DNA from: an uncultured delta proteobacterium
Lineage (GTDB): Bacteria > Desulfobacterota > Binatia > Binatales > Binataceae
Direction of reading: 5' to 3'
Length of the DNA: 64,000 bases
Assembly: GCA_963794325.1 (NCBI GenBank)
Contig: CAWCDG010000007.1
Location: 192,001 to 256,000 of the forward strand
Shown: one piece after another, positions 13,588 to 47,141 of the stretch
Numbering within the stretch: the first letter of the stretch is position 1
Layout: each line of letters starts with the position of its first letter
The notes under the pieces: generated by a model
The model's database searches: none
Told to the model about the DNA's origin: nothing
The model's input: the letters and a program-made list of their open reading frames with translations, nothing else
Made by a program: the position numbers and the translations under genes

Positions 13588-14823
13588 ATGGCGAAAACCT
13601 CGAAGAATATTCTCGACGAAGCGCGCTCGACGATTAGACAGATCGGTATCGACGAAGCGCGCGCGATGATCGACCAGCCCGGCACCGTGCTGGTCGATGT
13701 GCGCGAAGCGGACGAGTGGCGGCAGGGGCATATTCCGCAGGCGGTCGCGATTCCGCGCGGGTTCCTCGAGCTTCGAGTCGAGGAGAAAATCCCCGACCAC
13801 AAGACTCCCGTGATTTTGCAGTGCGCGTCGGGCACGCGCTCGCTGCTCGCGGCGCGGACCCTGCGCGAGCTCGGCTACGAGAACGTCTTCAACATGACGG
13901 GCGGCTTCAGCGCGTGGAAGGATCGCGGGCTGCCGTGGATTGCGGATCGCGCGTTCACCAGCGAGGAGCTGACCCGCTACTCGCGCCATTTCGTGATTCC
14001 CGAGGTCGGCGAGAAGGGACAGGCGAAACTGCTCGACGCCAAGGTGCTGCTACTCGGCACCGGCGCGCTGGGATCGCCGTCGGCGCTGTACCTGGCCGCG
14101 GCCGGAGTCGGCACGATCGGGCTGGTGGATTTCGACGTGGTCGATATGTCGAATCTCCAGCGGCAGATTATACACACCACCGATCGCGTCGGCATGCCGA
14201 AGACCGAGTCGGCCCAGAAGGCGATCAACGCGCTGAATCCCGGCGTCAAGGTGATTCGCCACGATGTGCGGCTCACCTCCGAGAACGCGATGGATATCGT
14301 CAAGGACTACGACGTGGTCGTGAACTGCGGCGACAATTTTCCGACTCGATATCTGATCAACGACGCATGCGTCTTCGCGAAGAAGCCGTTGGTTGACGGC
14401 GCGATTTTCCGCTTCGAAGGCAACACCACGGTTTTCTACCCGGCCAAGGGCGGCCCGTGTTACCGATGCCTCTATCCGGAGCCGGCCCCGCCGGACATGG
14501 CGCCCTCGTGCGCGGAGGCCGGAGTGCTCGGCGCGATTCCGGGACTCATCGGATCGATCGAAGCGCTCGAGGCGATCAAGCTCATAATCGGCGCGGGCTC
14601 CCCCCTAATCGGCAAGATGGTGTACTTCGACACGCTGTCCGACAAGGACTACGTGCGCGTTTTGAAGATCCGCAAAGATCCGAAATGCCCGGTCTGCAGC
14701 GAGCATCCTACGCAGACCACCTTGATCGACTACGAAGCATTCTGCGGATTCGGCGCGCCCGCGAACGGAACTGCGCACGCGGAACCAACGGCGCATGCGA
14801 GCGCGGCGGCGTCGGCACGCTAA
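13588..14823 (+). CDS. moeZ: MoeZ/MoeB-type E1-like adenylyltransferase with N-terminal rhodanese domain
   Basis: Rhodanese DVRE..EW..GHI and CASGTRS; RYSRH, GTGALG, DFDVVDMSNLQRQ, CYRC, SCAEAG, CPVC. Confidence 0.9.
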   Translation: MAKTSKNILDEARSTIRQIGIDEARAMIDQPGTVLVDVREADEWRQGHIPQAVAIPRGFLELRVEEKIPDHKTPVILQCASGTRSLLAARTLRELGYENVFNMTGGFSAWKDRGLPWIADRAFTSEELTRYSRHFVIPEVGEKGQAKLLDAKVLLLGTGALGSPSALYLAAAGVGTIGLVDFDVVDMSNLQRQIIHTTDRVGMPKTESAQKAINALNPGVKVIRHDVRLTSENAMDIVKDYDVVVNCGDNFPTRYLINDACVFAKKPLVDGAIFRFEGNTTVFYPAKGGPCYRCLYPEPAPPDMAPSCAEAGVLGAIPGLIGSIEALEAIKLIIGAGSPLIGKMVYFDTLSDKDYVRVLKIRKDPKCPVCSEHPTQTTLIDYEAFCGFGAPANGTAHAEPTAHASAAASAR

Positions 14824-32807: not shown

Positions 32808-33074
32808 ATGGCCGAGATAATCGATTTTGCGGAGATCCAGAAGGCGCGGCGAAAAGCTCGCGCGCGCATCCCCGAGCGCGAAAACCTCGAGCGCGCGGTG
32901 CAATTGATGCGTGAGAATCTCGCGGCAGTTGCCGCGGAGCTTGCCGACGCGCCGCGCGAACAGCAGGCCGAATTGTTGACGCGAGTCGAACGGCTGGCCG
33001 CGATGATTCGCTACGGAATGCGAATGCTCGGCGATTTGGTTCCCTCGCCCCACGAGGGGAGAGGGTTAGGGTGA
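32808..33074 (+). CDS. Small helical hypothetical protein
   Basis: MAEIIDF start and typical codon usage; its last ~12 codons and stop lie inside a family C repeat. Confidence 0.65.
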   Translation: MAEIIDFAEIQKARRKARARIPERENLERAVQLMRENLAAVAAELADAPREQQAELLTRVERLAAMIRYGMRMLGDLVPSPHEGRGLG

Positions 33075-33145
33075 GGGACGATTGTGCGGAGCCGTTGTCT
33101 GTTGCGCCGCACATTAGGAATCTCGGAAAATTTGGTCCCCCACCC
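33038..33145 (-). repeat. Repeat family C, copy 2 (truncated)
   Basis: Reverse complement aligns with 29890-29993 (GGGACCAAATTT...TGTGCGGCGCAAC.AGACAA...CCCTCACCCTAACCCTCTCCCC.CGTGGGGCGAGGGAACC). Confidence 0.85.
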
Positions 33146-33165
33146 AACGTTCAGAAGTGGCAAGA

Positions 33166-33201
33166 AACCTAACCCCTAACCCCTTCCCTCGAGGGAAGGG
33201 G
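33166..33201 (+). repeat. Repeat family A
   Basis: AACCTAACCCCTAACCCCTTCCCTCGAGGGAAGGGG. Confidence 0.92.
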
Positions 33202-33258
33202 AATAATCGCGTTTAGAGTTCAACCGCGGTTGGCGTTCGCTAGAGCTCGAATTCAACG

Positions 33259-33909
33259 ATGGACGAGGGAGTAACTCTCAGAATTACCGGCGTTGAGCCG
33301 GGGGACGAGATCGCGGGGGCGCGCAAGGTCACTATCAACACGACGCGCGGCGCGATTCCGCTCGTGCTGCATTCCGCGGCGGAGAAGGGGCGCGCCGTTT
33401 TGTGCGTCAGCGGCGCGATCGGCGGATTCGACGGTCCCTCGATGCTCTATCCGCGGCTGGGGCTGGAGATGCCCAAGCGCGGACTCACGATCGCACGGCT
33501 CGATTATCGCGCGCCCAACGAGTTCGGCGAATGCCTGGTTGATGCGATGGCGGCGTTGACGTTCCTCGGCGGCATCGGGAATCAGCGAGTCGCGTTGATT
33601 GGGCATTCGTTCGGCGGCGCGGTCGCTATCAATGCGGGCACGCTGAGTCCGATTGTCACGACCGTGATTGCGCTGTCAAGCCAGCTCGCTGGCGCGCATG
33701 TCGCAGGCGAGCTGGCGCCCAAGCCATTGCTGCTGATTCACGGCAGCGCGGACACGATTCTCTCCCATGAAAGTTCGCAGGCGCTTTACGATCGCGCGGG
33801 CGAGCCGAAGACGATCAAGATTTTGCCAGGTGTGGGGCACGGATTAGCGGAGTCGCGAGACGAAGTATTCGCGCTAGTCAGCGACTGGCTGTTGCAGCAA
33901 CTACACTGA
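33259..33909 (+). CDS. Alpha/beta hydrolase
   Basis: GHSFGG, IHGSAD, GVGH catalytic triad motifs. Confidence 0.88.
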   Translation: MDEGVTLRITGVEPGDEIAGARKVTINTTRGAIPLVLHSAAEKGRAVLCVSGAIGGFDGPSMLYPRLGLEMPKRGLTIARLDYRAPNEFGECLVDAMAALTFLGGIGNQRVALIGHSFGGAVAINAGTLSPIVTTVIALSSQLAGAHVAGELAPKPLLLIHGSADTILSHESSQALYDRAGEPKTIKILPGVGHGLAESRDEVFALVSDWLLQQLH

Positions 33910-33917
33910 TTTCTGAT

Positions 33918-34081
33918 TCCCTCCCCCATTGTGGGGGGAGGGTTAGGGTGGGGGACAATATGGCGCGCGATTGTCTGTTGCGCGCCATGCTCCTTTCGCA
34001 ATGAGGAAATTCAGAAGCTAAGGTCCCCCACCCGCCGCTCGCGGACGAGCGTCGGCCTCCACCCACGAACGGGGGAGGCGA
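33918..34081 (-). repeat. Repeat family C, copy 3
   Basis: Reverse complement contains GCCGACGCTCGTCCGCGAGCGGCGGGTGGGGGACC, GCGCAACAGACAATCGCGCGCC and CCCCACCCTAACCCTCCCCCC. Confidence 0.85.
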
Positions 34082-34131
34082 GGAGTAGGAAATGCTTCAC
34101 TCCAGTAGGTGCGTCGCGATACAATCGCCCG

Positions 34132-35136
34132 ATGGCTAATGGACAACGAATTGCGTTGATTGGTGCGACGGGAGCCGTCGGCCAGACCACGCTGAAAATC
34201 CTCGAGCAGCGGAACTTTCCGGTTCGCGAGCTGCGCGCCTACGCGTCGGCGCGGTCGGCGGGCAAGACCGTCACGTTCGCCGGCGAGTCGATACCGGTTG
34301 AGAAACTGGACGCCAACTCGTTCAAGGGAATCGATATCGTCCTGTTCTCGGCGGGATCCGAGCAATCGCGCGAGTTCGCGCCGATCGCGGTCAAGGCCGG
34401 CGCTGTCGTAATCGACAAGTCGAATGCGTTTCGAATGGACCCCGACGTGCCGCTGGTGGTGCCCGAGATCAACTCCGCCGCCGCTAGAAATCATAAGGGT
34501 ATTCTCGCATGCCCGAACTGCACGACAATCATCACCGTGATGCCGCTGAAACCGCTGCATGACCTTGGGCGGCTGAAGCGAGTCGTCGCGACCAGCTTCC
34601 AGGCCGTGTCGGGTGCGGGCGTGAACGGCGTTGCTGAGCTGACCGAGCAGACGATGGCGTGGTCGAAGGACGAGCCAATCAAGGCGAAGTATTTTCAGCA
34701 TCAGATTGCCTTCAACCTCATTCCGCATATCGACAAATTCGTCGAGGGCGGGTACACCGGCGAGGAAATCAAGCTGGTCAACGAAATTCGCAAGATCCTC
34801 GACCAGCCCGACTTGCTTATTTCGCCGACCACGGTGAGGGTGCCGGTCTTCACCGCGCATTCGATTTCCATCAACGCCGAAACCGAGACGAAGATCGCGG
34901 CGGCCGACGCGCGCGAGGCGTTCGCGAATTTCCCGGGAATCCGGCTCTACGACGATCCCGCGCAGAATCGCTATCCGATGCCGATCATCGTCGAGGGCCA
35001 GGACGATTGCTTCGTCGGCCGAATCCGCGAGGACCTGAGCTGTCCCAACGCGCTGAACTTCTGGGTGGTGGGCGACCAGTTGCGCAAGGGCGCCGCGCTC
35101 AACGGCGTCCAGATTGCGGAACTGCTGATCGGCTAG
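34132..35136 (+). CDS. asd: Aspartate-semialdehyde dehydrogenase
   Basis: GATGAVG, FRMDPDVPLVVPEIN, PNCTT, QAVSGAG, RVPVFTAHS, DQLRKGAALN. Confidence 0.96.
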   Translation: MANGQRIALIGATGAVGQTTLKILEQRNFPVRELRAYASARSAGKTVTFAGESIPVEKLDANSFKGIDIVLFSAGSEQSREFAPIAVKAGAVVIDKSNAFRMDPDVPLVVPEINSAAARNHKGILACPNCTTIITVMPLKPLHDLGRLKRVVATSFQAVSGAGVNGVAELTEQTMAWSKDEPIKAKYFQHQIAFNLIPHIDKFVEGGYTGEEIKLVNEIRKILDQPDLLISPTTVRVPVFTAHSISINAETETKIAAADAREAFANFPGIRLYDDPAQNRYPMPIIVEGQDDCFVGRIREDLSCPNALNFWVVGDQLRKGAALNGVQIAELLIG

Positions 35137-35162
35137 CGCGCGATCTCAAAGATCGCCGCCCG

Positions 35163-36536
35163 TCACGGCATCGGGATGGCCGTGCTGACCGGATTCCACT
35201 GCGTGGCGCCGGTCGGACTTCCACCCAGTACGGGCGCTGACAGATCGACGCGAACCAGGAACAGCGGCGGCTGCGGATCATGATCGTTGGCCCACGAATG
35301 ATAGTACGGATCCGTGTCCGCCAGCATGTAGGCCAGATTATTATTCACATCGACTGACAACGTGTTCGGATCGCCGACAATACCCAGTTGGGTCGGCGTG
35401 CCGCTGACGTCTCCCATTGGAATCAGCCCGGCGCAAATCGTAAAGACCGACGCTGCGTCCGGTTGGGTGCCGCTTCCCGGCTGTCCATTGTTGTCGAGCG
35501 CACCTGGCACGCTCGTGGCCGGCAGATGAATCATTTTCAGATTCTGGCCGAATTCGTCGCTGATAACCCCCTGATGGGTGGCTGCGTTGACGACCGTCTG
35601 TCCGCCCGGCCCTTCGCCAGTCGGTGGGAGAACTCCAAGTCCGTTGAATCCGATGCTCAGTGCAGTCGCCGGCGTCACGGCGGTATCCAGCGTTCCGAAG
35701 TTGAACGCGTTGCCGTGGTCCTCGCCGACCTCATCGGATTGCAACAGGATGTTGGTCGTGGGATCGAATCCGACTCCGTCCGCTATAGACTCGGTGCCTT
35801 CGAAGGATTGCACGACCAGCGGAAGCGTCCCGATATTCGTTATCTCGTTCGTTCCGTCAGTCGAGATGAACAAAATGCCGGTCGTTGGGTTCAGCGAGAT
35901 CGAATCGGTACCGGCCACCGAGACCACCGATGCGGCGTTGAAGACCGGCGGTTCCACCGACGTATCCATCAGACCGATCGTTGAGGTTCCGGCCACCACC
36001 AGCAGGTTACGCACGGGATCGGCAATCACTCCGCCGAAGCGGTTCGAGTTGGTGATCCCAGGGCAGGGAATTGTGTTGATGATCGCCTGGGTCGTCGTGT
36101 TGATCTCAAAGATGCTGACTGAGCCGTCAGCGAGGGTTCCTTCCGCATACACGCGGCCGTTCTTCTGATTGAAGGCTCCTCCGGTCGGCACCACCACGTT
36201 CGACAGTTCGAGAAGCTTGATGACCGGATTGGCCGCACCGATCGCCAGGTTGACAACCGCCAACTGCGAACTACCGGGAACCGCGGCAGGATTGATCCGC
36301 GCTCCTCCTCCGCCGCTGAGCGTATAGATCGGCACGTAACCGACATTGTTCGCCGTGTCGATCGCGATAAGACCCTGACCCGTGGCGCTGCTCGGCGGCG
36401 GTGTCGGGGTAGCAGTAGGTCGGTGCTTGGTAGTAGTCGAACAAGACGCGCAGGGATCGCATCCCGCTGTGTAGAGTGACATCCCCGCAATCCCGATTAA
36501 CAAACAGACAACCAGCCCCGCCCATCGAGAGGTCAT
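35163..36536 (-). CDS. Putative lipoprotein / secreted beta-propeller-like protein
   Basis: Hydrophobic signal ending TAGC, CDPCASC cluster, PTATPTPP linker, beta-rich repeats (AID/ADP/LNP/FDP/SVD); AGGAG SD. Confidence 0.65.
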   Translation of the reverse strand: MTSRWAGLVVCLLIGIAGMSLYTAGCDPCASCSTTTKHRPTATPTPPPSSATGQGLIAIDTANNVGYVPIYTLSGGGGARINPAAVPGSSQLAVVNLAIGAANPVIKLLELSNVVVPTGGAFNQKNGRVYAEGTLADGSVSIFEINTTTQAIINTIPCPGITNSNRFGGVIADPVRNLLVVAGTSTIGLMDTSVEPPVFNAASVVSVAGTDSISLNPTTGILFISTDGTNEITNIGTLPLVVQSFEGTESIADGVGFDPTTNILLQSDEVGEDHGNAFNFGTLDTAVTPATALSIGFNGLGVLPPTGEGPGGQTVVNAATHQGVISDEFGQNLKMIHLPATSVPGALDNNGQPGSGTQPDAASVFTICAGLIPMGDVSGTPTQLGIVGDPNTLSVDVNNNLAYMLADTDPYYHSWANDHDPQPPLFLVRVDLSAPVLGGSPTGATQWNPVSTAIPMP

Positions 36537-36691
36537 AGTCGATCTCCTACTGCTTTGTCGCAAAATCCGCAGTACGGCTCTGCGAGATTCGATTTCCCAC
36601 CCGGAACTCCCCCAAAACTGGGGCGACCATAGACAAATGCACGCGCAGTAGCAAGCGAATTCTACATTCGCCTGACCGATTGGTTTGTCGA

Positions 36692-36721
36692 TTGACAACG
36701 CACGCGCTCGCATATTACGCT
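36692..36721 (+). promoter_or_regulatory. Sigma70-type promoter for the riboswitch operon
   Basis: TTGACA-N18-TACGCT about 20 nt upstream of the SAM-I aptamer. Confidence 0.5.
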
Positions 36722-36743
36722 TAGCCAACTGCAAACGATTGCA

Positions 36744-36863
36744 GCCTTATCGAGAGCGGCGGAGGGACATGGCCCGCTGATGCCGCAGCAACCGGCCCGC
36801 GATGGGTGCTGGTGCTAACTCCTGCAGGGAACCTCCGCGTGAGAGTCCCCTGGAAGATAAGGC
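36744..36863 (+). ncRNA. SAM-I (S-box) riboswitch
   Basis: P1 GCCTTATC...GATAAGGC; GAGAG-GGCGGAGGGA-TGGCCC-TGA-GCC-CAGCAACC; GGTGCTAACTCC; CAG...CTG P4; lies upstream of sulfur amino acid genes. Confidence 0.93.
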
Positions 36864-36965
36864 GAGAGTATTAAGCCCTCGTCTCACCGTCCTCGCAGGA
36901 TTTGTCACCGACCACATCGGCCCTGACCGCGTTGCACTCTCGACCGGCGGGAGAATCGCGAGGAA

Positions 36966-37700
36966 GTGGGAAACGATCGAATACTGATTGTTGGCGTCGG
37001 AGGACTTGGCGTCCCCGCATTATGGTCGCTGGCGCGGGCCGGCGCGCAACGCCTGACGCTCGTCGATCCCGACCCGGTCGAAGTTTCGAATCTCGCGCGC
37101 CAGGTGATCTATCACGGTCGCGATATCGGCGCGCCGAAGGTTGAAGCTGCGGCTCGATGGCTCGGCGAGCGGTTCCCAGCCGTTCACGTCGAGACGCGTC
37201 CGGTTGCGCTCGACGAATCCAACGCGGCGTGTCTGGTCGCGGAACACGATTTTGTAATCGACGCGACGGACAGTCCAGTCGCGAAATTTCTCATCAACGA
37301 CACGTGTATCGCGGCGCGGACGTCGTTCGTTTATGGCGGCGTAGTCGGGATGACCGGGCAGGCGATGACGGTGATTCCCACCGCGACGGCTTGCATCCGA
37401 TGCGTGTTCGAGGCTCCGCCTGATGAAAGCGAAATCCAGAGTTGCCGCGAGGCGGGAATCGTCGGTCCGGTCGCGGGCGCGATTGGCGAGATGCAGGCGG
37501 GCGAGGCGATGTGCGCCTTGCGCGCGCAAAGACCGTTACTCTCAGGAAAAATTCTCACATACGACGCGTCCCGGGTAAGCCGGGTGCGTATTACGTCGGT
37601 TAGCCCGCGCCAGGGATGCGACTGCGGCGCGTGGAAACAGAAACGCGAGCATCACGAAATCGCGAGCGGCGGGCAAGTAACAGAATCGAGGACACGATGA
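36966..37700 (+). CDS. ThiF/MoeB-family adenylyltransferase lacking the N-terminal RYSRQ helix (ThiF-A)
   Basis: GVGGLG, DPDPVEVSNLARQ, PKV, DATD, CIRC, SCREAG, CDC; an in-frame stop at 36924 rules out an N-terminal extension. Confidence 0.88.
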   Translation: MGNDRILIVGVGGLGVPALWSLARAGAQRLTLVDPDPVEVSNLARQVIYHGRDIGAPKVEAAARWLGERFPAVHVETRPVALDESNAACLVAEHDFVIDATDSPVAKFLINDTCIAARTSFVYGGVVGMTGQAMTVIPTATACIRCVFEAPPDESEIQSCREAGIVGPVAGAIGEMQAGEAMCALRAQRPLLSGKILTYDASRVSRVRITSVSPRQGCDCGAWKQKREHHEIASGGQVTESRTR

Positions 37701-38965
37701 GCTACATCACAAATCTGAAATGTCGCGAGTGCGGCCAGGAGTATCCGATAAGTCCGCTCCACGTCTGCGAGACCTGCTTCGGTCCGCTCGAAGTGACCTA
37801 CGACTACGCGCGCATTCGCGCGGCGATCTCGCGCTCGATAATCGAGAAACGTCCGCACAATCTGTGGCGCTATCGCGAATTGCTGCCGGTCGATTTCAAC
37901 GAGAACGATGTCGTCGGCCCGAACTCCGGCTTCACTCCGCTTCTGCATTGCAAACGCCTTGGCGCGGAACTCGGCCTCAAGCATCTCTATATAAAAGACG
38001 ACACCGTCAACCATCCGACCCTGTCGTACAAGGACCGCGTCGTGTCGGTGTCGATTACCAAGGCGCGCGAGTTCGGCTTCACCACCGTGTCGTGCGCAAG
38101 CACCGGCAACCTGGCGACGGCGGTCGCGGCACACGCGGCGCGCGCGGGCCTGCAATGCTACATCTTCATGCCCACTGGCGTGGAGGCGGGAAAAGTCGTC
38201 GGCTCGACGATTTACGGCGCCAAGGTGATAACGATTCGCGGCAACTACGACGACGTCAACCGGCTCTGCAGCGAAATCGCGGACAAGTACGGGTGGGCCT
38301 TCGTCAATATCAACCTGCGGCCGTTCTATACCGAAGGCGCGAAGACTTTCGGCTTCGAAGTCGCGGAGCAGCTCGGCTGGCGCCTGCCGGATCATATCGT
38401 TGTACCGACTGCGGGCGGGACGATTCTGCCGAAGATCGCGAAAGCATTTAAGGAGATGAAAGAAGTCGGGTTGATCAAGACCGGCGAGTTCAAAATTCAT
38501 TCCGCGCAGGCCGCCGGCTCCGCGCCCGTAATTCACGCGCTGCACAAGCATACCGACCTGATAACGCCGGTGAAGCCCGACACCATCGCGAAGTCGATCG
38601 CGATCGGAAATCCCGCCGACGGCTTCTACGTGCTCAAGGCGGTGCGTGATTCCGGCGGATGGGGCGACGTCGCCACCGACCCGGAAATCATCGATGCGAT
38701 CAAGCTGCTCGCGCGCACCGAGGGAATCTTCGCCGAGCCCGCCGGCGGCACCACGCTCGCGGTTGCGCTCAAGCTCGTCAAGCAGGGGCGCATCAAGCCC
38801 GACGAAACCGTGGTCGTGTCGATCACCGGCAACGGCTACAAAACACTCGAAGCGGTAGCGAGCGCGATCGAGCAGCCGTCAATAATCGACGCGCGCCTGA
38901 AAGATTTCGACGCGTTGTTCGATCGGCTAACCAATGGAAAACGCACCGCCGACAGCGCCGCATAG
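37697..38965 (+). CDS. Threonine synthase-like PLP enzyme; probable sulfur-carrier-dependent homocysteine synthase (MetM-like)
   Basis: N-terminal CxxC..CxxC, LWRYRELLP, PTLSYKDR (PLP Lys), ASTGN, ITGNGYK; SAM riboswitch and adjacent sulfur carrier support the functional call. Confidence 0.8.
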   Translation: MSYITNLKCRECGQEYPISPLHVCETCFGPLEVTYDYARIRAAISRSIIEKRPHNLWRYRELLPVDFNENDVVGPNSGFTPLLHCKRLGAELGLKHLYIKDDTVNHPTLSYKDRVVSVSITKAREFGFTTVSCASTGNLATAVAAHAARAGLQCYIFMPTGVEAGKVVGSTIYGAKVITIRGNYDDVNRLCSEIADKYGWAFVNINLRPFYTEGAKTFGFEVAEQLGWRLPDHIVVPTAGGTILPKIAKAFKEMKEVGLIKTGEFKIHSAQAAGSAPVIHALHKHTDLITPVKPDTIAKSIAIGNPADGFYVLKAVRDSGGWGDVATDPEIIDAIKLLARTEGIFAEPAGGTTLAVALKLVKQGRIKPDETVVVSITGNGYKTLEAVASAIEQPSIIDARLKDFDALFDRLTNGKRTADSAA

Positions 38966-39035
38966 GCTCTGCGGTTGTCTCGGCTACGAGGCGAGCATAG
39001 TTCTAAAAGTTCAAACAGGAGGTTAGTCCCCCATC

Positions 39036-39314
39036 ATGGCAGTACGCGTCAGAGTTCCAACCCCACTTCGCAGGTTTACTGCCGGCGTCGATGAAGTCCC
39101 GGCCGACGGTGCGTCGATCAAGGCGGTGATCGAAGATCTCGAACGGCGTCATCCCGGGATGCGCGAGCGGCTGCTCGATGAAAAAGGCGACATCCGCCGC
39201 TTCGTAAATATTTATCTCAACGGCGACGACGTCCGCTTTCTCGATGCGATCAACTCCAAGGTAAAGGATGGCGACGACATCTCAATCGTTCCCGCGATTG
39301 CCGGCGGACGCTGA
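39036..39314 (+). CDS. MoaD/ThiS/CysO-like ubiquitin-fold sulfur carrier (ends GG-R)
   Basis: VRVPTPLR, RRFVNIYLNGDDVRF, ISIVPAIAGGR; AGGAGG SD. Confidence 0.93.
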   Translation: MAVRVRVPTPLRRFTAGVDEVPADGASIKAVIEDLERRHPGMRERLLDEKGDIRRFVNIYLNGDDVRFLDAINSKVKDGDDISIVPAIAGGR

Positions 39315-39333
39315 CCTCGGCGCGCCGGTCGAC

Positions 39334-40341
39334 GTGCATGAGCGCGTCGTGCCGCTTCGTGAGGTCGTTCCGGTCGGGCGCGCGAATAACGTGCTCGATC
39401 TCGTCGGCAACACCCCGCTGCTCGAAATAAAGCGGCTCACCGCGGGACTGATTCCCGCGGGCGTGCGGATTTTCGCCAAGCTCGAGGGCTTCAACCCCGG
39501 CGGCTCGGTGAAGGATCGGCCGGCGAAGAAAATGCTCGAGGTCGGAATCGCGCAAGGCAAGCTGAAACCCGGCAAAGTGATCCTCGATTCGACGTCGGGC
39601 AACACCGGAATCGCGCTGGCGATGCTCGGCGCGACGCTCGGCTATCCGGTCGAGCTGGTGATGCCGTCGAACGTGAGCCGCGAGCGCAAGAAAATCGTCG
39701 AAGCTTACGGCGCGAAGATTCATTTCTCCGATCCGATGGAAGGATCCGACGGCGCGATCGTCATGTGCCGCAAACTGCTTGGGCAGAATCCCGATCGCTA
39801 CTTCAAGCCCGACCAGTACAACAACGAGGCCAACTCGATTGCGCATTTCGAGACCACCGGCCCGGAAATCTGGCGTCAGACGCGCGGCGAGGTGACGCAT
39901 TTCGTAGCCGCGATCGGCACCGGCGGCACCATCATGGGCACCGGCAGATTCCTGAAGTCGAAGAGTCGCGCAATCAAGGTGATCGCGGTCGAGCCTGACG
40001 ACGCGATGCACGGACTCGAGGGCCTCAAGCACATGGCGAGCTCGATCGTCCCGGGCATCTATCACGAAAAAGATCTCGACGACAAAATTCAGGTCGGCAC
40101 CGAGGAGGCGTACGAAATGGTGTACGCGCTCGGGCAGACCGAAGGTATCCTGGTCGGCCAATCGTCGGGGGCTGCGATAATCGCGGCTCTCAAGCTGGCG
40201 CGCTCGATTCGCGACGGCACCATCGTCACGATATTCGCCGACTTCGGCGACAAGTATCTCTCGACGAATTTGTGGATCGGATGGCAGGAATGGCGTCCCG
40301 AGCGCCTGCAACAAGTTATCGCCAAGTGGCAGAAGAAGTAA
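39334..40341 (+). CDS. cysM: Cysteine synthase CysM family (start approximate)
   Basis: VGNTPL, AKLEGFNPGGSVKDR, TSGNTG, GTGGT, GQSSG, DKYLST. Confidence 0.9.
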   Translation: MHERVVPLREVVPVGRANNVLDLVGNTPLLEIKRLTAGLIPAGVRIFAKLEGFNPGGSVKDRPAKKMLEVGIAQGKLKPGKVILDSTSGNTGIALAMLGATLGYPVELVMPSNVSRERKKIVEAYGAKIHFSDPMEGSDGAIVMCRKLLGQNPDRYFKPDQYNNEANSIAHFETTGPEIWRQTRGEVTHFVAAIGTGGTIMGTGRFLKSKSRAIKVIAVEPDDAMHGLEGLKHMASSIVPGIYHEKDLDDKIQVGTEEAYEMVYALGQTEGILVGQSSGAAIIAALKLARSIRDGTIVTIFADFGDKYLSTNLWIGWQEWRPERLQQVIAKWQKK

Positions 40342-40349
40342 TCGACAAA

Positions 40350-40595
40350 ATGGAACGTATCCACGAACGCTACTACCTGAGCTATCCGCGCACGCTGATC
40401 AAGGAGCCGATCCTTTATCAGTTGGTGAAGAAGTTCGATCTGGTTTTCAATATTCGCGGCGCCAGCGTGTCCGAGGAGATGGGCCTGGTCGCGGTCGAAT
40501 TCGAAGGCAGCAGTGATCAGATCGAGCGCGCGCTGACCTGGCTGCGCAGCACCGGCGTGACGGTCGAGCCAATCGAAAAGAACGTGATCGAATAG
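40350..40595 (+). CDS. Stand-alone NIL domain protein
   Basis: L.YP..LIKEPILYQLVKKFDLVFNIRGASV...G...VEFEG....IERAL.WL...GV.VE. Confidence 0.85.
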   Translation: MERIHERYYLSYPRTLIKEPILYQLVKKFDLVFNIRGASVSEEMGLVAVEFEGSSDQIERALTWLRSTGVTVEPIEKNVIE

Positions 40596-40611
40596 GTCGC
40601 GCGAGCGCGCG

Positions 40612-41190
40612 ATGACTCTCACGGACGCGCAAATCGATCGATACAGCCGGCAAATAATCGTGCCGCGAGTCGGCGGCCGCGGTCAGGAACGCTTGCTCGC
40701 CGCACGAATACTGCTCGCCGGCGATGCGCGCGACATCGAGGCGCCGCTCGCATACCTGGTCGGCGCGGGCGTCGGATCGATTCTGCTGAGGCCATCTGTT
40801 TATCAAGGAGTATGCGCTGAAAAACGCGAACTCAATCCGGACGTAACCGTGACAGATGAACGAAAGGCGCCAATCGATCTGGCACTGATGATCATCGGAA
40901 GTGAGTCGGCACGCAAAGTTGCAGATGAGATCGCGAACGATCGCGATGTGCAATCATTGGTGATCGCGCGCCTCGACGCGCCAGGAAAAATCGTCGTCAT
41001 CCCCGACGCGCACGGATCGCCAATTCTCGGCGCAGGATTCGGCTCGCGCTCCGAAGCTGCGGATTTTATCGCGATGCTTGCGACGGCGGAGGCATTCAAG
41101 CTGATCGCCGGCTACCAGGAGAATCCGTCGAGCGCGACGATCGAAATCGACTTCGACGGTTACCAGACCACAGTTCGCGTCAATCCGTGA
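40612..41190 (+). CDS. Degenerate ThiF-like protein retaining the RYSRQ helix (ThiF-B)
   Basis: LTDAQIDRYSRQII...GQERL, YL..AGVG, LNPDV and AEAFKL are present; GxGxxG, SNLxRQ and the Zn cysteines are absent. Confidence 0.8.
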   Translation: MTLTDAQIDRYSRQIIVPRVGGRGQERLLAARILLAGDARDIEAPLAYLVGAGVGSILLRPSVYQGVCAEKRELNPDVTVTDERKAPIDLALMIIGSESARKVADEIANDRDVQSLVIARLDAPGKIVVIPDAHGSPILGAGFGSRSEAADFIAMLATAEAFKLIAGYQENPSSATIEIDFDGYQTTVRVNP

Positions 41191-41858
41191 TGTACAAACT
41201 CTGGATGTTCGATTTCGACAACACGCTCGCGCGGCTCGAGCCCGAGGTCGATTGGGCCGGCGGCCGGCTCATCCTCGAACCGTACATGCGATCAGCCGGC
41301 GCGCCCGAGGAACTGTTCACCCGAATCCCGCGCGGCAACCTCCCGCTCTACGACGCGTACCGCTCACTTACTGTGCACGACCCCGATCAGCCGAAAATAA
41401 TCGGAACGCTCCAACACGCTTCTGACATAATCGAGAAACTCGAGTTGGCAGGAGTCGATCGCGCACAACCGCTCGAAGGTGCGATCGAAATACTCGCGAC
41501 ACTGAAGAAGAGCGGCGCTTCGATCGCGATCGTGACGTCCAATTCTTCGAAGACCGTCAAACGCTGGTTCGACAGACGTGCAACCGCGTCGGTCGATGCG
41601 ATCGTCGGGCGTGACACACTGCTCGCACTCAAGCCGGCCCCCGATATGATTCTTCGCGCACTCGAATTATTTTCCGTCGATCGATCCGAGGCCGCCTTCG
41701 TCGGCGACAGCGATGCCGACCTCCGCGCCGCGCAAAATTGTAACGTGCGATTCTACGGAATCGCACCCACCGACATTGCCCGCGATCGATTGCTCAATGC
41801 TGGAGCTAAAGAAATTTTCAGCTCGCCCGCCGCGTTGGCCGTTGCTTTGTCATCCTGA
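41187..41858 (+). CDS. HAD family phosphatase
   Basis: FDFDNTL, VTSN, KPAPD, VGDSDAD; GTGA overlap with ThiF-B. Confidence 0.88.
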   Translation: MMYKLWMFDFDNTLARLEPEVDWAGGRLILEPYMRSAGAPEELFTRIPRGNLPLYDAYRSLTVHDPDQPKIIGTLQHASDIIEKLELAGVDRAQPLEGAIEILATLKKSGASIAIVTSNSSKTVKRWFDRRATASVDAIVGRDTLLALKPAPDMILRALELFSVDRSEAAFVGDSDADLRAAQNCNVRFYGIAPTDIARDRLLNAGAKEIFSSPAALAVALSS

Positions 41859-41928
41859 CGAAGCGAGCAACGCGAGCGCCTCGTGTCATCCTGACGACGG
41901 GAGCACTAGCGACGGGAGGAATGGATCT
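41849..41928. repeat. TGTCATCCTGACG duplicated REP-like element
   Basis: TGTCATCCTGACGA at ~41849 and ~41884, followed by GGATCT. Confidence 0.55.
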
Positions 41929-41950
41929 CGGACAGCTTCGCGCACGCGAA

Positions 41951-42027
41951 GCCGGTTCCGGTTTCCCAAAATCGCGAAGCGCTCCACATTTGCGCCGGTT
42001 CCGGTCTCTGAAATCGCGAAGCGCTCC
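41951..42027. repeat. Imperfect 43-bp tandem duplication
   Basis: GCCGGTTCCGGT....AAATCGCGAAGCGCTCC occurs twice. Confidence 0.75.
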
Positions 42028-42115
42028 TTTTCAAGCCTTGTTTCCTCCGACAATATTAAGTAACTTCTGAGGTTCAGTAAGTAATCTATTCCTAAGGGAG
42101 CGTCAGTTTTAGCAG

Positions 42116-42658
42116 ATGGATCAAGGGTTTACCTTGTGGTTTACAGGCCTGTCCGGGGCGGGAAAATCAACGCTTGCGAATCTGGTCGCCGACGAACTGC
42201 GCAAGCGCGGGCATCGCGTCGAAATCCTCGACGGTGACGAAGTACGCACCAATCTCTCCAAGGGCCTCGGCTTTTCCAAGGAGGATCGCGACATCAACAT
42301 CCGGCGGATCGGCTACGTATGCCATCTGCTGGCGCGCAACGGCGTCATCTCGATCTCGGCGGCGATTTCGCCCTACCGCGAGGTGCGCGACGAGGTGCGG
42401 CGCAATCACGACCGCTTCTTCGAGGTGTACGTGCGATGCACGATCGACAAGCTGGTCGAGCGCGACGTCAAGGGCCTCTACAAGAAGGCGCTGGCCGGCG
42501 AGATCAAATCGTTCACCGGCGTGTCGGACCCTTACGAGGAACCGCTGACGCCGGAACTCGTCGTCGATAGCAGCACCGAGACCGTCGAGCAGAGCCTGGG
42601 CAAGCTGCTCGGACGCCTCGAAGAGCTGAATTACATCAACAAGGGAGCACGGAGATGA
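42116..42658 (+). CDS. cysC: Adenylyl-sulfate kinase
   Basis: [46 protein letters not shown]. Confidence 0.96.
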
Positions 42659-43831
42659 GCGTGCGCGATGACGCAATTTCGGCACACGGCGGCGGCGAGC
42701 TAGTCGATCTGAAAGCGCCGGCCAGTGAGCGCGCTGCACTCGCGGCGCATGCGGCGAAGCTCGCGAGCGTCACGCTCAATGCGCGCGACATCGCCGACCT
42801 CGAGATGCTTGCGACGGGCGCCTTCTCTCCGCTGACCGGCTTCATGGGCGAGGCGGACTACACTCGCGCGCGCGACGAGATGCGCCTCGCGTCGGGCGTG
42901 CCGTGGTCGATTCCAATCACGCTCGGCGTCGATGAGGCCACAGCTAAATCGCTGAAGACCGGAAGCGAGATCGCGCTCGCGACCGACGACGGCAAGCGGC
43001 TGGCGATTCTCAAGCTTGCGGAAATTTACAAGGTCGATCGCAAGAACGAAGCGCAGAACGTGTTCGGCACCTCGGAAGACGCGCATCCGGGCGCGAAGAA
43101 CGTCACCTCGATGCCGCCATACTGCCTCGCCGGAAACGTCACGCTCATTGAAGAGATACCGGGGCGCACCTTCCTGGAATTTCCGCGCGAGCCGCGGCAG
43201 ACGCGCGCGGCGTTTCGCGAGCGTGGATGGAAAAAGATCGTCGCGTTCCAGACGCGCAACCCGACCCATCGCGCGCACGAGTACATCCAGAAAGCGGCGC
43301 TCGAAATCTGCGACGGCCTGATGATTCATCCGCTGGTCGGCGAGACCAAGGGTGACGACGTGCCCGCCGCGGTCCGCATGGAGACTTACAAAGTATTGCT
43401 CGACGCGTACTACCCCAAGGACCGCGCGATGATCGGCGTGTTCCCGGCGCACATGCGCTACGGCGGCCCGCGCGAGGCGATTCTGCACGCGATCGCGCGG
43501 CGCAATTACGGATGCACGCATTTCATCGTCGGGCCGCGATCACGCCGGCGTCGGCAATTACTACGGCAGTTACGATGCGCAGAAAATCTTCGAGCGCTTC
43601 GCGCCGGCCGAACTTGGAATTACGCCGCTGATGTTCGAGAACACTTTCTACTGCAGGCGATGCAACTCGATGGCGTCGTTCAAGACCTGCCCGCATTCAG
43701 ACGCGGACCGGGTGATACTTTCGGGCACGAAAGTTCGCGAGATGCTGCGCGCGGGTGAAGCGCCGCCGCCGGAATTCACCCGCCCCGAGCTGGCAGCGAT
43801 CCTGGTGAAAGCAATGCACGACGCGAAGTAG
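42655..43831 (+). CDS. sat: Sulfate adenylyltransferase (frameshift near 43533)
   Basis: [33 protein letters not shown]; VGRDHAGVG and LSGTKVRE continue in the shifted frame. Confidence 0.92.
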
Positions 43832-43886
43832 GCTCGCGATCGTAAAGCGGGCCGGGCCTACTTAAAGAAATCGCGGGAGAAAAATT

Positions 43887-44867
43887 GTGAGCAAGTGGCA
43901 ATTCACCAAAGGTCTGCACGACCTCGGACGCGGCGCTTACGCATACCTGCAGCCCTCGGGCACCTGGGGTTACAGCAACGCCGGATTGATTACCGACGGC
44001 GATCAATCGCTGCTGGTCGATACGCTTTTCGACGAACGGCTGACCGCCGAGATGCTTGGCGTGATGCGCGACGCGACCGGCTTTGGCGCCGATCGCATCG
44101 GCGTGGTGGTGAACACGCACTCGAACGGCGATCACACCTTTGGCAATCGGCTTGCGAAAAATGCGGTGATCATTGCGTCGGAAGCGGCGGCGCACGAGAT
44201 GCGCGAAGAAGGCAATCCGCAGATGCTCGCGTCGTTGATGAAAAATGCTGACTCAATGGGAGAGGTCGGCGCTTTTTTCAAGAAAATTTTCGGTGCGTTC
44301 GATTTCGCCGGAGTCACATTCCGGCTGCCCGACCGCACCTTCGTCGGAGAGGAAACGCTCAAGGTCGGCGATAAGCAGGTAAGCCTGATCCAGGTCGGCC
44401 CCGCGCACACCGCGGGCGACGTGATTGCCTTTGTCCCCGCCAATCGAGTCGTTTACACCGGCGATATTCTGTTCATCGAAGGGACTCCGATCGCGTGGGC
44501 AGGTCCGGTGAGCAACTGGATCAAAGCATGCGACCGGATTTTGGACTTGGATGCCGACGTCATCGTCCCCGGCCACGGTCCGATCACCGACAAGGCCGGC
44601 GTCAAGCGGATGCAGGACTACCTGGTGTACGTCGACCAGGAAGCGCGCAAGTGTCACGCGGCGGGAATGAATTCATGGGAGGCCGCGCAGAATATCGCGT
44701 TGGGCTCTTTCGGCGCCTGGGAAGATCCCGAGCGGCTGGCGGTCACGGTGGACACGATTTTTCGCGAGATAAATGACGATCACTCGTCGCGCAACATCGG
44801 AGAACTTTTCGGCCGAATGGCGCAGTTGCAGAGCCGCTTTGCCGCTCCTTCAGCGACTCCCCGCTAA
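43887..44867 (+). CDS. Metallo-beta-lactamase fold hydrolase (cyclase-like)
   Basis: SNAG, VNTHSNGDH.FGN, AHTAGD, TGD, VPGHG. Confidence 0.88.
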   Translation: MSKWQFTKGLHDLGRGAYAYLQPSGTWGYSNAGLITDGDQSLLVDTLFDERLTAEMLGVMRDATGFGADRIGVVVNTHSNGDHTFGNRLAKNAVIIASEAAAHEMREEGNPQMLASLMKNADSMGEVGAFFKKIFGAFDFAGVTFRLPDRTFVGEETLKVGDKQVSLIQVGPAHTAGDVIAFVPANRVVYTGDILFIEGTPIAWAGPVSNWIKACDRILDLDADVIVPGHGPITDKAGVKRMQDYLVYVDQEARKCHAAGMNSWEAAQNIALGSFGAWEDPERLAVTVDTIFREINDDHSSRNIGELFGRMAQLQSRFAAPSATPR

Positions 44868-47141
44868 GTTCAGCGATGGCCCCGGGATTTGCGGGAGCCA
44901 TCGGTTCAATTGAGAGAGTAAATATTCGAGGCGGCGCATCGAGTGCAGTTCAGCGAGAATCGCGCGTCGCTGATCGAGCGTCCATGGTGTGATTCGCGCG
45001 AATTCCCGCTCCTCTATCCGTGAACCGAACAGCTCGAGACGCGTTTCCAACTCACTCGTCGAATGCGATCGCGCAATCGCCTGCGCGGCCCGCGGGTCGA
45101 GACTTTCAGCACTGCTGAAGAAATCCAGCCACGACTCGAGTTGCCGGCGGACTGCGTCGATCACCTCGACGCGCGCCGATTCGGTTGAGGCGTCCAGTTG
45201 CGGCGTCGGAGTGACGATCCGCCCGCTCGCAATCGAGGCCATCCGGTTCGCGATACGCCGCAGCGTGCCGGCCGCCTCCACAATAGCGTTATGGTTGACC
45301 GTGCTGGTGCGGCCCTCCATTTGCGCATCATCCGAGACCTCCAGAATTTCCGCCAGCGTCCGCATGCTCTGCGAGTTAGCCTGCTGAATCTCATCCTCAG
45401 TGTTCGAGGCGGAACCACCCGGCGCCAGTGCAAGTGCGTCGCGAATAACTTCACGCAGCCTCGGCAACAACGAATCGCCGGCGTACGCCGGCCACAATAT
45501 TAAAAAGACGGCTGCCGCGACCAACGTCCCGAGCAAAACTCCCCAGATACGCCACAGCGGCGCGTAAACGTCGAGCGCGGGACTCAAGCCGGCAAACGCC
45601 AACGCGAATGTCGTACCGATCTGCTTTCCCGCGTATGAAACACGTCCGCTGCTTAGCGAGGAGTACGACGAGATATAGAAGACTACGAAGAGGGCGATCA
45701 TATAAGCCGGAAGAGTCTCGAAGTTCGGAGTGACGACAATGATTGTCAGCAGAGTTATCGCCCCGCCGATTATCACTCCGACGATCCGCAGAATCATCTT
45801 GCGCAGGGTTGCGCCGTAAGTTGGAAGCGCGGTTATCAGCACCGTCGTCAGGATTGTTGAGAGGTCGGCGCGCTGGGTGACGACTCCGATCACATAGCCG
45901 ATCACCACGCATAAACCGACCTTCATGGAAAAGCGGACCACCGCATGATCCGGCGCGTCGGTCGCTCCTGGAGCCACCGTGGCAGACGGCGTCGCCGCGG
46001 CAGGCTGCGGAGGCTCATCGAGCAGCTGCTCGATATGCGCGGTCAGCGCCGCCAGCGAATCGGTGAAGGATGCGAAATTCTCGATCTCCGCCGAACTCGC
46101 AGTGCCGATATACTTCGGCCTGATCTGTATAACGCGTGCGGCGAGCGCATCGTATGCCGATCGTGCCCGGGTCCGCGAGGCAGGTGGCGGCTTGTCAGCG
46201 CCAACCGGAATGTAGGTCGGAAATTCGCGGGCGATTTCGTCCAACACCGTCGCGATTGCATTCACCGACGCTTGCAGTTCCGGGCGCGCCATTGCGGAAA
46301 TATCTCCGGGTACGTCCTGGCGCGCCGCGAACGTCAGGCGATCGGTTTCGAGACCGATGCGCGCCACGCGCGTGATAGCCGCAAGCAGGATCGCGCGACG
46401 ATGCTGGGAGACTCCTTCGGCTACACTGCGATTCAGAAGCTCCATGTGCGAGGGAAGATCCGAAGTCGGCGGTGGCAGCGGCGGCCGCGGCGCATCATGG
46501 CGATCGAGATAATAATTCGCAGCTTCAAGCAGCCGCGAACGATCGCGAGCGACGGTCGCTCCCAGCGATTCCAGCAGGATTTCTTCACCGCGATCCGGCC
46601 AAATCCAGTTGTCGAACAGGACGATCGTGCCGAATGCGATCAGGCTTCCGCCGAATTCGGCGGCCGCGTTCCAACCGATTTCCCCCGGCGCATACACCAC
46701 GCCGTAAAAGATAAAGAGGCAGGTCACCTGGATGAGCAGAAGTGCCGCGCCAAGGTTGCGAATCGTTCCGAAGTAGCTCGAAATCGAAATCAACCCGAAC
46801 AGAAATGGGAGCATCAGCCACGGCGTCTCGGACAATATACCGGCCAGCACCACTGATGCGGCCAGCGCCACTGCTTCCGCGATCAGAAACCCAACCGCCT
46901 TGCGCGCCGACATCATCGGCCCCGCACCCACCAGCAGCCACACGATGTAAGTGCCTAGCTCGTTGTAGACGTGACAGCTCGCGACCAGGCCGGCGCCGAT
47001 CGTGCCGATCGTGGCGAGGCGAAGGGCAGTTCGGAGTTTTCGGGAATTCGGCGCAAGCTCTCGGGAGAGCAACGCCGTGAGCTGATCGAACCAACCCGGC
47101 GGCTGCGCGAGGCGGATCTCCGGTTTGGCGTAGCCGGCCAT
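44850..47141 (-). CDS. FUSC family (fusaric acid resistance-like) membrane efflux protein
   Basis: Two multi-TM blocks, each followed by WP and a long helical region; LR.VG..IG and R.WG.LLG motifs. Confidence 0.8.
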   Translation of the reverse strand: MAGYAKPEIRLAQPPGWFDQLTALLSRELAPNSRKLRTALRLATIGTIGAGLVASCHVYNELGTYIVWLLVGAGPMMSARKAVGFLIAEAVALAASVVLAGILSETPWLMLPFLFGLISISSYFGTIRNLGAALLLIQVTCLFIFYGVVYAPGEIGWNAAAEFGGSLIAFGTIVLFDNWIWPDRGEEILLESLGATVARDRSRLLEAANYYLDRHDAPRPPLPPPTSDLPSHMELLNRSVAEGVSQHRRAILLAAITRVARIGLETDRLTFAARQDVPGDISAMARPELQASVNAIATVLDEIAREFPTYIPVGADKPPPASRTRARSAYDALAARVIQIRPKYIGTASSAEIENFASFTDSLAALTAHIEQLLDEPPQPAAATPSATVAPGATDAPDHAVVRFSMKVGLCVVIGYVIGVVTQRADLSTILTTVLITALPTYGATLRKMILRIVGVIIGGAITLLTIIVVTPNFETLPAYMIALFVVFYISSYSSLSSGRVSYAGKQIGTTFALAFAGLSPALDVYAPLWRIWGVLLGTLVAAAVFLILWPAYAGDSLLPRLREVIRDALALAPGGSASNTEDEIQQANSQSMRTLAEILEVSDDAQMEGRTSTVNHNAIVEAAGTLRRIANRMASIASGRIVTPTPQLDASTESARVEVIDAVRRQLESWLDFFSSAESLDPRAAQAIARSHSTSELETRLELFGSRIEEREFARITPWTLDQRRAILAELHSMRRLEYLLSQLNRWLPQIPGPSLNLAGSR

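Follow-up and report, generated by a model that had tools for sequence, protein, structure and literature searches.

A clipped ThiF and a catalytically dead ThiF paralogue as probable subunits of one asymmetric sulfur-carrier-activating enzyme in an operon of Binatia

The window, as we call the whole 64,000-nucleotide stretch of DNA analysed here (contig CAWCDG010000007.1 of assembly GCA_963794325.1, positions 192,001 to 256,000, from an uncultured delta proteobacterium of the Binataceae), carries on its + strand a single tightly packed row of genes that runs from an S-adenosylmethionine (SAM) riboswitch to the gene for sulfate adenylyltransferase (Sat). Two members of this row, ThiF-A and ThiF-B (A and B below), encode relatives of the adenylating enzymes ThiF and MoeB, and they are probably the two subunits of one asymmetric, E1-like (ubiquitin-activating-enzyme-like) enzyme that activates a carrier protein, a pairing that an earlier note on this DNA had proposed. 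The features on which the argument draws are listed here in window coordinates; only ThiF-A and the last entry score above the Pfam cut-off for ThiF in this genome.

36744-36863, + strand: SAM-I riboswitch aptamer, the operon leader (Rfam RF00162, 84.7 bits against a gathering score of 44.4, full model 1-108)
36966-37700, + strand: ThiF-A, the active subunit in our reading (GTG start, 244 amino acids; Pfam ThiF 208 bits)
37694-38965, + strand: threonine-synthase-like (ThrC-like) pyridoxal phosphate (PLP) enzyme with a Cys-rich N-terminal segment (Pfam PALP 244.8 bits; NCBIfam PRK08197 327.7 bits)
39036-39314, + strand: ThiS/MoaD-like sulfur carrier with the tail AIAGG plus R (Pfam ThiS 55.2 bits; NCBIfam SAMP1 60.2 bits and moaD_arch 52.4 bits)
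39268-40341, + strand: CysM-type cysteine synthase, start codon uncertain (Pfam PALP 233.9 bits)
40272-40595, + strand: small NIL-domain protein, start uncertain since relatives align from about residue 26 (Pfam NIL 55.6 bits)
40612-41190, + strand: ThiF-B, the inactive subunit in our reading (192 amino acids; degenerate ThiF fold as modelled, with the RYSRQ helix and the dimer-interface helices kept)
41187-41858, + strand: HAD-family phosphatase, its start overlapping the ThiF-B stop by 4 bases (Pfam HAD_2 85.6 bits)
42116-42658, + strand: adenosine phosphosulfate (APS) kinase, CysC (Pfam APS_kinase 205.9 bits)
42655-43831, + strand: Sat, frameshifted in the assembly (Pfam PUA_2 and ATP-sulfurylase)
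13588-14823, + strand: full-length rhodanese-ThiF protein, MoeZ/MoeB-like (Pfam Rhodanese at residues 22-112; ThiF at 131-369, profile 1-238, 266 bits)

ThiF-A has a complete catalytic core. It matches Pfam ThiF (PF00899) over positions 20-236 of 238 with 208 bits (cut-off 28.1) and the NCBIfam MoeB model PRK05690 only from position 33, and its translation contains GVGGLG, DPDPVEVSNLARQ, K58, IDATD, CIRC, C160 and CDC, all of them invariant in 25 orthologues. The residues that define the family's Rossmann fold, ATP site and catalysis (G10, G12, G15, D34, R45, K58, D99, and D102) and the four cysteines of its zinc site (C143, C146, C218, and C220) are likewise unchanged in these 25 sequences. 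What is missing is the N-terminal trans-arginine helix (RYxRQ), which corresponds to profile positions 1-19. A missed N-terminus was considered and ruled out: a TGA lies in frame upstream at 36924-36926, the riboswitch and its expression platform occupy the space in front of the gene, and a profile of the N-terminal helix run over all six-frame open reading frames (ORFs) of at least 60 amino acids between 33001 and 46000 matched the ThiF-B ORF and nothing else; two short ORFs in other frames, covering 36802-37144, are also without the helix motif. The earlier note's two statements about A, that it has every catalytic motif without the RYSRQ helix and that its N-terminus was neither missed nor frameshifted, thus both stand. 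There is also no insertion in the crossover region of this 244-residue protein, so that a catalytic-cysteine domain is not present.

ThiF-B, which starts MTLTDAQIDRYSRQIIVPRVGGRGQERLL, is recognized by profile libraries only over about the first 60 model positions (4-61 of 250 for PRK05690, 1-48 for Pfam ThiF), and its Pfam ThiF score of 19.8 bits is below the cut-off of 28.1. It has AGDARD at the site of the Gly loop and is without SNLxRQ and CxxC; its C-terminal TAEAFKL helix is kept. Because a sequence search against solved structures reached only the N-terminal 58 residues or so (matching Uba4, MoeB, and ThiF), the fold of the protein was approached by structural modelling and profile comparison. 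Profile-profile alignment (hhalign) matches B 24-192 to A 1-228 with a probability of 98% and E 1.6e-13 at 12% identity. An AlphaFold2 model (predicted local distance difference test, pLDDT, 83.4; predicted template modelling score, pTM, 0.82) has as its top Foldseek matches ThiF (1zud), Uba4 (6yuc), and MoeB (1jw9), with E from 2e-9 to 7e-9 and template modelling (TM) scores of 0.67-0.69; lower in the list, at E about 1e-6, come the SUMO E1 chains 1y8q_C and 3kyc_A, which we take to be SAE1. On this modelling, ThiF-B is a whole ThiF fold despite its lost catalytic motifs, and the operon encodes two paralogous adenylation domains of which one is catalytically dead.

The same combination of features extends well beyond the window. 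In RYSRQI, none of the 33 B sequences compared, which come from 10 families, departs from R13, Q14, and I15, and the first arginine, R10, varies. When a B profile was searched against 1.84 billion representatives, 224 representative clusters were found at E <= 1e-30, and in the best 150 of these the helix motif is present in 144 and DxDxVxxSNLxRQ is missing in 149. Every taxon recovered for the named B relatives and for the nearest ESM Atlas clusters belongs to Candidatus Binatus, Binatia, or Binatota, the close named relatives being Candidatus Binatus sp. One or two CxxC motifs are kept by B in two members of the genus (loci L030 and L031) and in most other families of the class. The earlier description of B, with the helix retained and the Gly loop, SNLxRQ, and zinc motifs gone, is therefore accurate in every part for the window, and its loss of zinc cysteines holds only for most B proteins of the genus. 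Existing annotation calls B mostly "hypothetical protein" or "ThiF", and A resembles a truncated gene.

A protein without any catalytic motif might be a functionless paralogue left to decay after duplication, and in the tree described below the terminal branches of B are mostly longer than those of A. Selection argues strongly against this. Among 13 orthologues from the genus (78 pairs, Nei-Gojobori method), the ratio of nonsynonymous to synonymous substitution rates (dN/dS) is as follows.

ThiF-A, whole: 0.234
ThiF-B, whole: 0.288
ThiF-B, residues 1-58: 0.158
ThiF-B, residues 59-145 (the former nucleotide site): 0.427
ThiF-B, residues 146-192: 0.168

B is thus under purifying selection, which answers the dN/dS check suggested with the original proposal, and the constraint is strongest at its two ends: these two segments make up 105 of the 192 residues and hold 35 of the 39 B residues at the interface with A predicted below. 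B is kept by selection and is not a decaying paralogue. Intact B ORFs in 16 families, the invariant R13, Q14, and I15, and the 224 clusters point the same way. In favor of decay, B is frameshifted in 3 of the 24 loci of the window's own family (f1): in G003, where the HAD gene is shifted too, in G006, where B alone is shifted, and in G021, an assembly in which every locus gene is shifted. These frameshifts may be assembly errors or real losses. We regard decay as largely refuted and as very improbable, and B as a pseudogene is ruled out by dN/dS together with co-occurrence over 78 loci. As a separate observation, both L056 (G021; A, ThrC-like, CysM, NIL, and B all shifted) and L088 (G112) have frameshifts in several locus genes, and broken genes in these two loci should not be taken for pseudogenes.

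RNA data were not informative on this point. Contigs 85-95% like the part of the operon from the riboswitch to NIL occur in three soil metatranscriptome runs, with next to no cover of the body of B, and two contigs from RNA libraries (records 24 and 32) extend 37-52 bases from NIL into B. The 85% threshold is too strict for a gene that diverges as fast as B, and contigs cannot show transcription, so that no conclusion could be drawn.

Across the class, a clipped A and a dead B go together. We surveyed 78 loci from 19 families (Candidatus Binatia where named), taking the loci of the genus from a drawn sample, of which 18 of 24 genomes were fetched. ThiF-like ORFs were typed in three ways, by the helix profile, the catalytic-core profile, and the SNLxRQ motif, because a class-level B profile overlapped ordinary ThiFs at E about 1e-20 to 1e-28. 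The loci fall into four types.

Helix-less A with helix-bearing, motif-less B: 65 loci in 16 families
Helix-less A, contig cut off short of the B position: 2 loci
A single full-length ThiF, B absent: 9 loci, in f3 (5), f14 (2), and f16 (2)
A full-length ThiF at both the A and the B position: 2 loci, in f6 (G029, G124)

A clipped A without B was found in none of the 78 loci where the B position is readable, nor was B found without A in any of the 78. Three genomes of the class had no match to the B profile; one of them has a divergent B, and the contigs of the remaining two stop short of the B position. Conservation of B with A in relatives, on which the heterodimer had been said to depend, is accordingly what the survey returned. 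In five loci of one genus subclade (L026-L029 and L060, genomes G005, G008, G014, G002, and G001), A and B are adjacent, about 60 bases apart, and are followed by HAD, CysC, and Sat.

The two proteins are also predicted to fit each other. A and B were folded together with ATP, using their alignments, and scored 0.90, 0.91, and 0.90, against 0.01 for the best of three controls; the pass mark is reached by 58 of 80 solved complexes and by 2 of 110 mismatched pairs. Contact agreement among the A:B runs is at least 81% and the pLDDT of the partner at least 82. In the predicted contacts the helix of B (residues 6-20) lies on A 40-50 (VSNLARQVIYH), with B 9-14 touching A 40-45 (VSNLAR), B 44-53 on A 43-48, and B 151-181 on A 162-209. 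As modelled, this layout is the canonical ThiF-type dimer interface, with the helix of B on the nucleotide-binding segment of A. Natural fusions of the two proteins support their pairing at the level of sequence. Two metagenomic protein clusters, P0212 (448 amino acids) and P0274 (449 amino acids, 5 member sequences), 89% identical over their full length, are B-A fusions: the B profile aligns with residues 2-204 (probability 99.3%, E 7e-21), and residues 229-446 match window A 5-226 at 36% identity (E 6e-38), with no second helix. A search for longer fused forms found only ordinary ThiF fusions (to rhodanese, MoaE-like, and other domains) that match the B helix alone, and no further B-A fusion. 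All the computational checks that the earlier note had named as able to overturn its idea thus turned out in favor of it.

From these computed motifs, folds, interfaces, fusions, and patterns of selection and co-occurrence we infer how the enzyme would work. A would be the active adenylation subunit and would adenylate the terminal glycine of the carrier. B, its dead paralogue, would use the usual ThiF/MoeB dimer interface to pair with A and would make good in trans, by its own N-terminal helix with Arg13 of RYSRQ, the loss of this helix from A, and the dimer would have a single active site. The losses would be reciprocal because the N-terminal helix of either subunit of a ThiF dimer serves the ATP site of the other, so that a helix on A would serve only the dead site of B and could be lost.

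An alternative is that A works alone as a homodimer that tolerates the loss of its helix, and that B is a separate accessory protein using its conserved surfaces otherwise, for example as a chaperone of the carrier, as a scaffold for CysM, the ThrC-like enzyme, or NIL, or as a regulator. A does keep all of its adenylation residues. The constrained segments of B are, however, those of the ThiF dimer interface, with 35 of 39 predicted interface residues; every B accompanies a clipped A, and no single full-length ThiF has a B beside it; and A and B stay adjacent where the carrier and PLP genes have been lost, and exist as fusions. We consider this alternative unlikely, while giving it more weight than any other rival to the asymmetric A/B enzyme.

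Besides the frameshifts of B, several points weigh against that enzyme. The binding of A to B is itself a prediction, and its score may partly reflect solved MoeB and ThiF homodimers, and so indicate likeness rather than binding; the readout has no ligand contacts, so that a contact of Arg13 with ATP lies outside it. The locus counts must be read with the knowledge that loci beyond the genus were picked by hand to cover families and are not a random sample, and that kin are not independent. The subclade with A and B adjacent lacks the ThrC-like, carrier, CysM, and NIL genes at the locus. The best carriers elsewhere are 33-40% identical in 3 of the 4 such genomes searched, with only a short marginal match in G014, and in G002, the only such context examined, the carrier adjoins an unrelated 471-residue protein. 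dN/dS in this subclade is 0.32 for A and 0.41 for B (6 pairs, low divergence). Excerpts of PMC13139853 further state that the arginine fingers MoeB Arg14 and ThiF Arg11 are not essential, that TcdA has no arginine finger, and that the R59A mutant of Tcd1 was only 26% less active. Non-essential arginine fingers would mean that B may matter more for dimer stability than for catalysis, or that A may be active alone. Finally, judging by analogy, the intact rhodanese-ThiF at 13588-14823 could activate the carrier.

This last enzyme is the center of another alternative, in which B pairs with the rhodanese-ThiF or with itself, or in which the rhodanese-ThiF is the E1 of the carrier and A and B act on some other substrate. 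MoeZ-type enzymes are described as activating CysO in mycobacteria (PMC3227635, in excerpt) and MetO in the MetM/MetO pathway of Streptomyces (PMC13759103, table 2, in excerpt), A and B have no rhodanese domain, and the subclade with A and B adjacent has no cognate carrier. Against it, an N-terminal helix and the full set of motifs are already present in the rhodanese-ThiF, which therefore needs no partner; the presence of B tracks a clipped A and not any feature of a rhodanese-ThiF; and A, the carrier, and B lie in one operon across the class. We find this alternative improbable, and less likely than the one in which A acts alone. The gene had been entered earlier as an intact MoeZ, and it is indeed intact, but its rhodanese domain is N-terminal (residues 22-112), ahead of the ThiF domain (131-369).

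The substrate that we propose for the A/B enzyme is the protein at 39036-39314, which has the ThiS/MoaD fold and a C-terminal Gly-Gly followed by R, and whose matches to Pfam ThiS and to NCBIfam SAMP1 and MoaD bear out the claim that a MoaD-like carrier is encoded between A and B. Once activated, the carrier would be converted to a thiocarboxylate, which would serve the CysM-type enzyme for cysteine and the ThrC-like enzyme for homocysteine, under control of the SAM riboswitch. Both PLP enzymes cluster with the carrier. By analogy, the ThrC-like enzyme (37694-38965) may be a MetM-like, carrier-thiocarboxylate-dependent homocysteine synthase, and the SAM riboswitch fits a methionine branch. In related loci the carrier tail is AIAGGR in 25 and ends in GG in 12, the others having V, T, L, C, N, A, H, or M as the extra residue. 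Because many carriers bear one residue after Gly-Gly, this residue would have to be trimmed first, probably by a JAMM peptidase encoded elsewhere. The genome has one Prok-JAB (JAMM) gene, with 71 bits, on another contig and away from the operon (L051, G000:C2:207808-208116); it adjoins a gene on the same strand.

The layout of the operon is partly conserved. Scanning 15 related loci gave a SAM-I riboswitch 5' of the leading ThiF gene in 10, mostly loci with a ThrC-like gene, and none was found in L026 or L027 of the subclade with A and B adjacent. The ThrC-like gene adjoins the carrier gene in most related loci, the NIL gene is directly 5' of B in most loci with a ThrC-like gene, and a HAD gene follows B in 23 of the 24 loci of f1. 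The CysM-type protein scores 370.7 bits against NCBIfam TIGR01138 cysM (cut-off 394.2) and 349.1 bits against TIGR01136 (cut-off 344.15), and the alignment of its relatives starts at about residue 38. In Sat, the ATP-sulfurylase Pfam match ends at profile position 121 of 212 and the C-terminal part continues in the ORF at 43631-43831. The frameshift lies near 43530-43535, where the window has CATCGTCGGGCCGCG and relatives L024 and L034 have CATCGT-GGGGCGCG, one base fewer; it is either an assembly error or a real break. The gap between HAD and CysC contains, at 41850-41975, a dispersed repeat of about 125 bases with two copies of tgtcatcctgacga, which has 27 full or partial matches at E <= 0.001 in its own genome. 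The bin 41833-42000 has a very high summed contig depth in one soil DNA run, 2343 against roughly 20-180 in other bins. Upstream of the operon, also on the + strand, are genes for aspartate-semialdehyde dehydrogenase (Semialdhyde_dh, Semialdhyde_dhC; 33931-35136) and an alpha/beta hydrolase (33259-33909), separated from the riboswitch by an ORF of 523 amino acids on the opposite strand (35163-36734), and a metallo-beta-lactamase-fold gene (43887-44867) follows Sat.

The pair appears to have arisen from two complete ThiFs. A tree of 79 rows (IQ-TREE quick search, support by the Shimodaira-Hasegawa-like approximate likelihood ratio test, SH-aLRT), with the rhodanese-ThiF of the window as outgroup, divides into two lineages with support of 98 each. 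All 33 B sequences form one clade (98), with the intact second copies from f6, then the B of G094, at its base (98); all A sequences form a group with the first copies from f6 (94), adjoined by the single full-length ThiFs of f3, f14, and f16 (97). Given this position, B derives from a ThiF paralogue that was intact and had the same place in the operon, and the loss of its site is compatible with one event. The families with a single full-length gene may have lost the second copy, or the root may be misplaced by the long branches of B. The f6 loci look like intermediates. In L048 (G029) and L081 (G124) two full-length ThiFs flank the operon, and the helix of the first copy is degenerate, scoring 21-22 bits against 59-62 for the second copy and 34-48 for single full-length genes; in L080 (G094) A is already clipped and B still scores 148 bits against the catalytic-core profile. 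On balance, and with some reserve, we favor the view that a homodimeric sulfur-carrier E1 became, independently and within one bacterial class, an obligate active/inactive heterodimer with one site, the same solution as in eukaryotic E1s, and that all stages are extant: a single full-length gene, two full-length genes, a clipped A whose B is still core-like, a clipped A whose B is dead, and a B-A fusion in one chain. The order in the fusion, dead domain before live domain, is that of BilD and of Uba1-type E1s in excerpts of PMC10557695 and PMC12355090.

The individual parts have well-known counterparts. A resembles the E1s of the E. coli pairs MoeB-MoaD and ThiF-ThiS (PDB 1jw9/1jwa and 1zud/1zfn) in fold and in all catalytic motifs, and a ThiS/MoaD carrier ending in Gly-Gly is common to both. 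MoeB and ThiF are homodimers with two active sites, both subunits binding ATP and carrier (PMC12355090, in part), and their N-terminal arginines, MoeB Arg14 and ThiF Arg11, act on the ATP site of the partner (PMC13139853, in part). Unlike in MoeB and ThiF, the two roles here appear to be divided between two genes, and only one subunit could be active. Eukaryotic SAE1-UBA2 (for SUMO) and NAE1-UBA3 (for NEDD8) resemble A/B in pairing an active adenylation domain with an inactive one and in having only one ATP site, which for A/B we infer. In eukaryotic heterodimeric E1s an arginine of the inactive subunit completes the active site. Unlike these E1s, A/B have no catalytic-cysteine domain, ubiquitin-fold domain, or sign of conjugation, the product is probably a thiocarboxylate, and, on the 79-row tree, the origin of the pair appears independent, within one bacterial class. 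No gene resembling an E2 (ubiquitin-conjugating enzyme) was present among the ORFs read or scanned at about 33000-45000, although no search aimed at E2-fold proteins was made. Of the eukaryote-like E1 architecture seen earlier in this operon, the pairing of an active with an inactive adenylation domain remains, and the catalytic-cysteine domain, the ubiquitin-fold domain, and an E2 do not belong to it.

Among bacteria, the closest comparison is BilD, the E1 of the Bil antiviral system, which pairs an inactive with an active adenylation domain and takes Arg9 from the inactive one; the same article, in the part available, describes the other known bacterial E1-like proteins as homodimers (PMC10557695). 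BilD is a single chain with a mobile cysteine domain, works with an E2, and serves phage defence, whereas A and B are two genes in a riboswitch-controlled biosynthetic operon. Yeast Tcd1-Tcd2, the dehydratase of N6-threonylcarbamoyladenosine (t6A), is likewise made of two ThiF paralogues, one of which lacks a key catalytic arginine and lends Arg59 to the site of the other, but it is eukaryotic, acts on tRNA and not on a carrier protein, and keeps the N-terminal region in both subunits (PMC13139853, in part). The pathways CysO-CysM-Mec-MoeZ of mycobacteria and MetO-MetM-Mec-MoeZ of Streptomyces are the nearest parallels to the operon as a whole: here too a carrier, a CysM-type enzyme, and a ThrC-like enzyme are clustered, and a JAMM protein and a rhodanese-ThiF are encoded in the genome. 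In the CysO and MetO pathways one full-length rhodanese-fused E1 is encoded elsewhere, while the operon described here has its own A/B pair together with NIL, HAD, CysC, and Sat. We found no earlier two-gene bacterial ThiF heterodimer in the open-access literature, supplements excluded, or in the accessible part of Iyer et al. 2006 (PMC1779556), and an earlier mention is possible. The families involved (ThiF/MoeB, ThiS/MoaD, CysM, and ThrC-like) are known; their arrangement, with an active/inactive ThiF pair divided over two genes of a biosynthetic operon, does not belong to a known family.

A long-standing question about the evolution of the ubiquitin system is how symmetric MoeB/ThiF-like homodimers gave rise to the asymmetric E1, with one dead and one live adenylation domain. 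This transition appears to have occurred a second time, in sulfur metabolism and without an E2 or conjugation, and its intermediates survive. What is gained by killing one site, whether the trans arginine is needed, and in which order the losses came are questions that could now be tested with small soluble proteins. There is also a practical consequence for a widespread soil group: with B annotated as hypothetical and A seemingly truncated, pathway tools could misjudge the capacity of these bacteria for cysteine and methionine synthesis.

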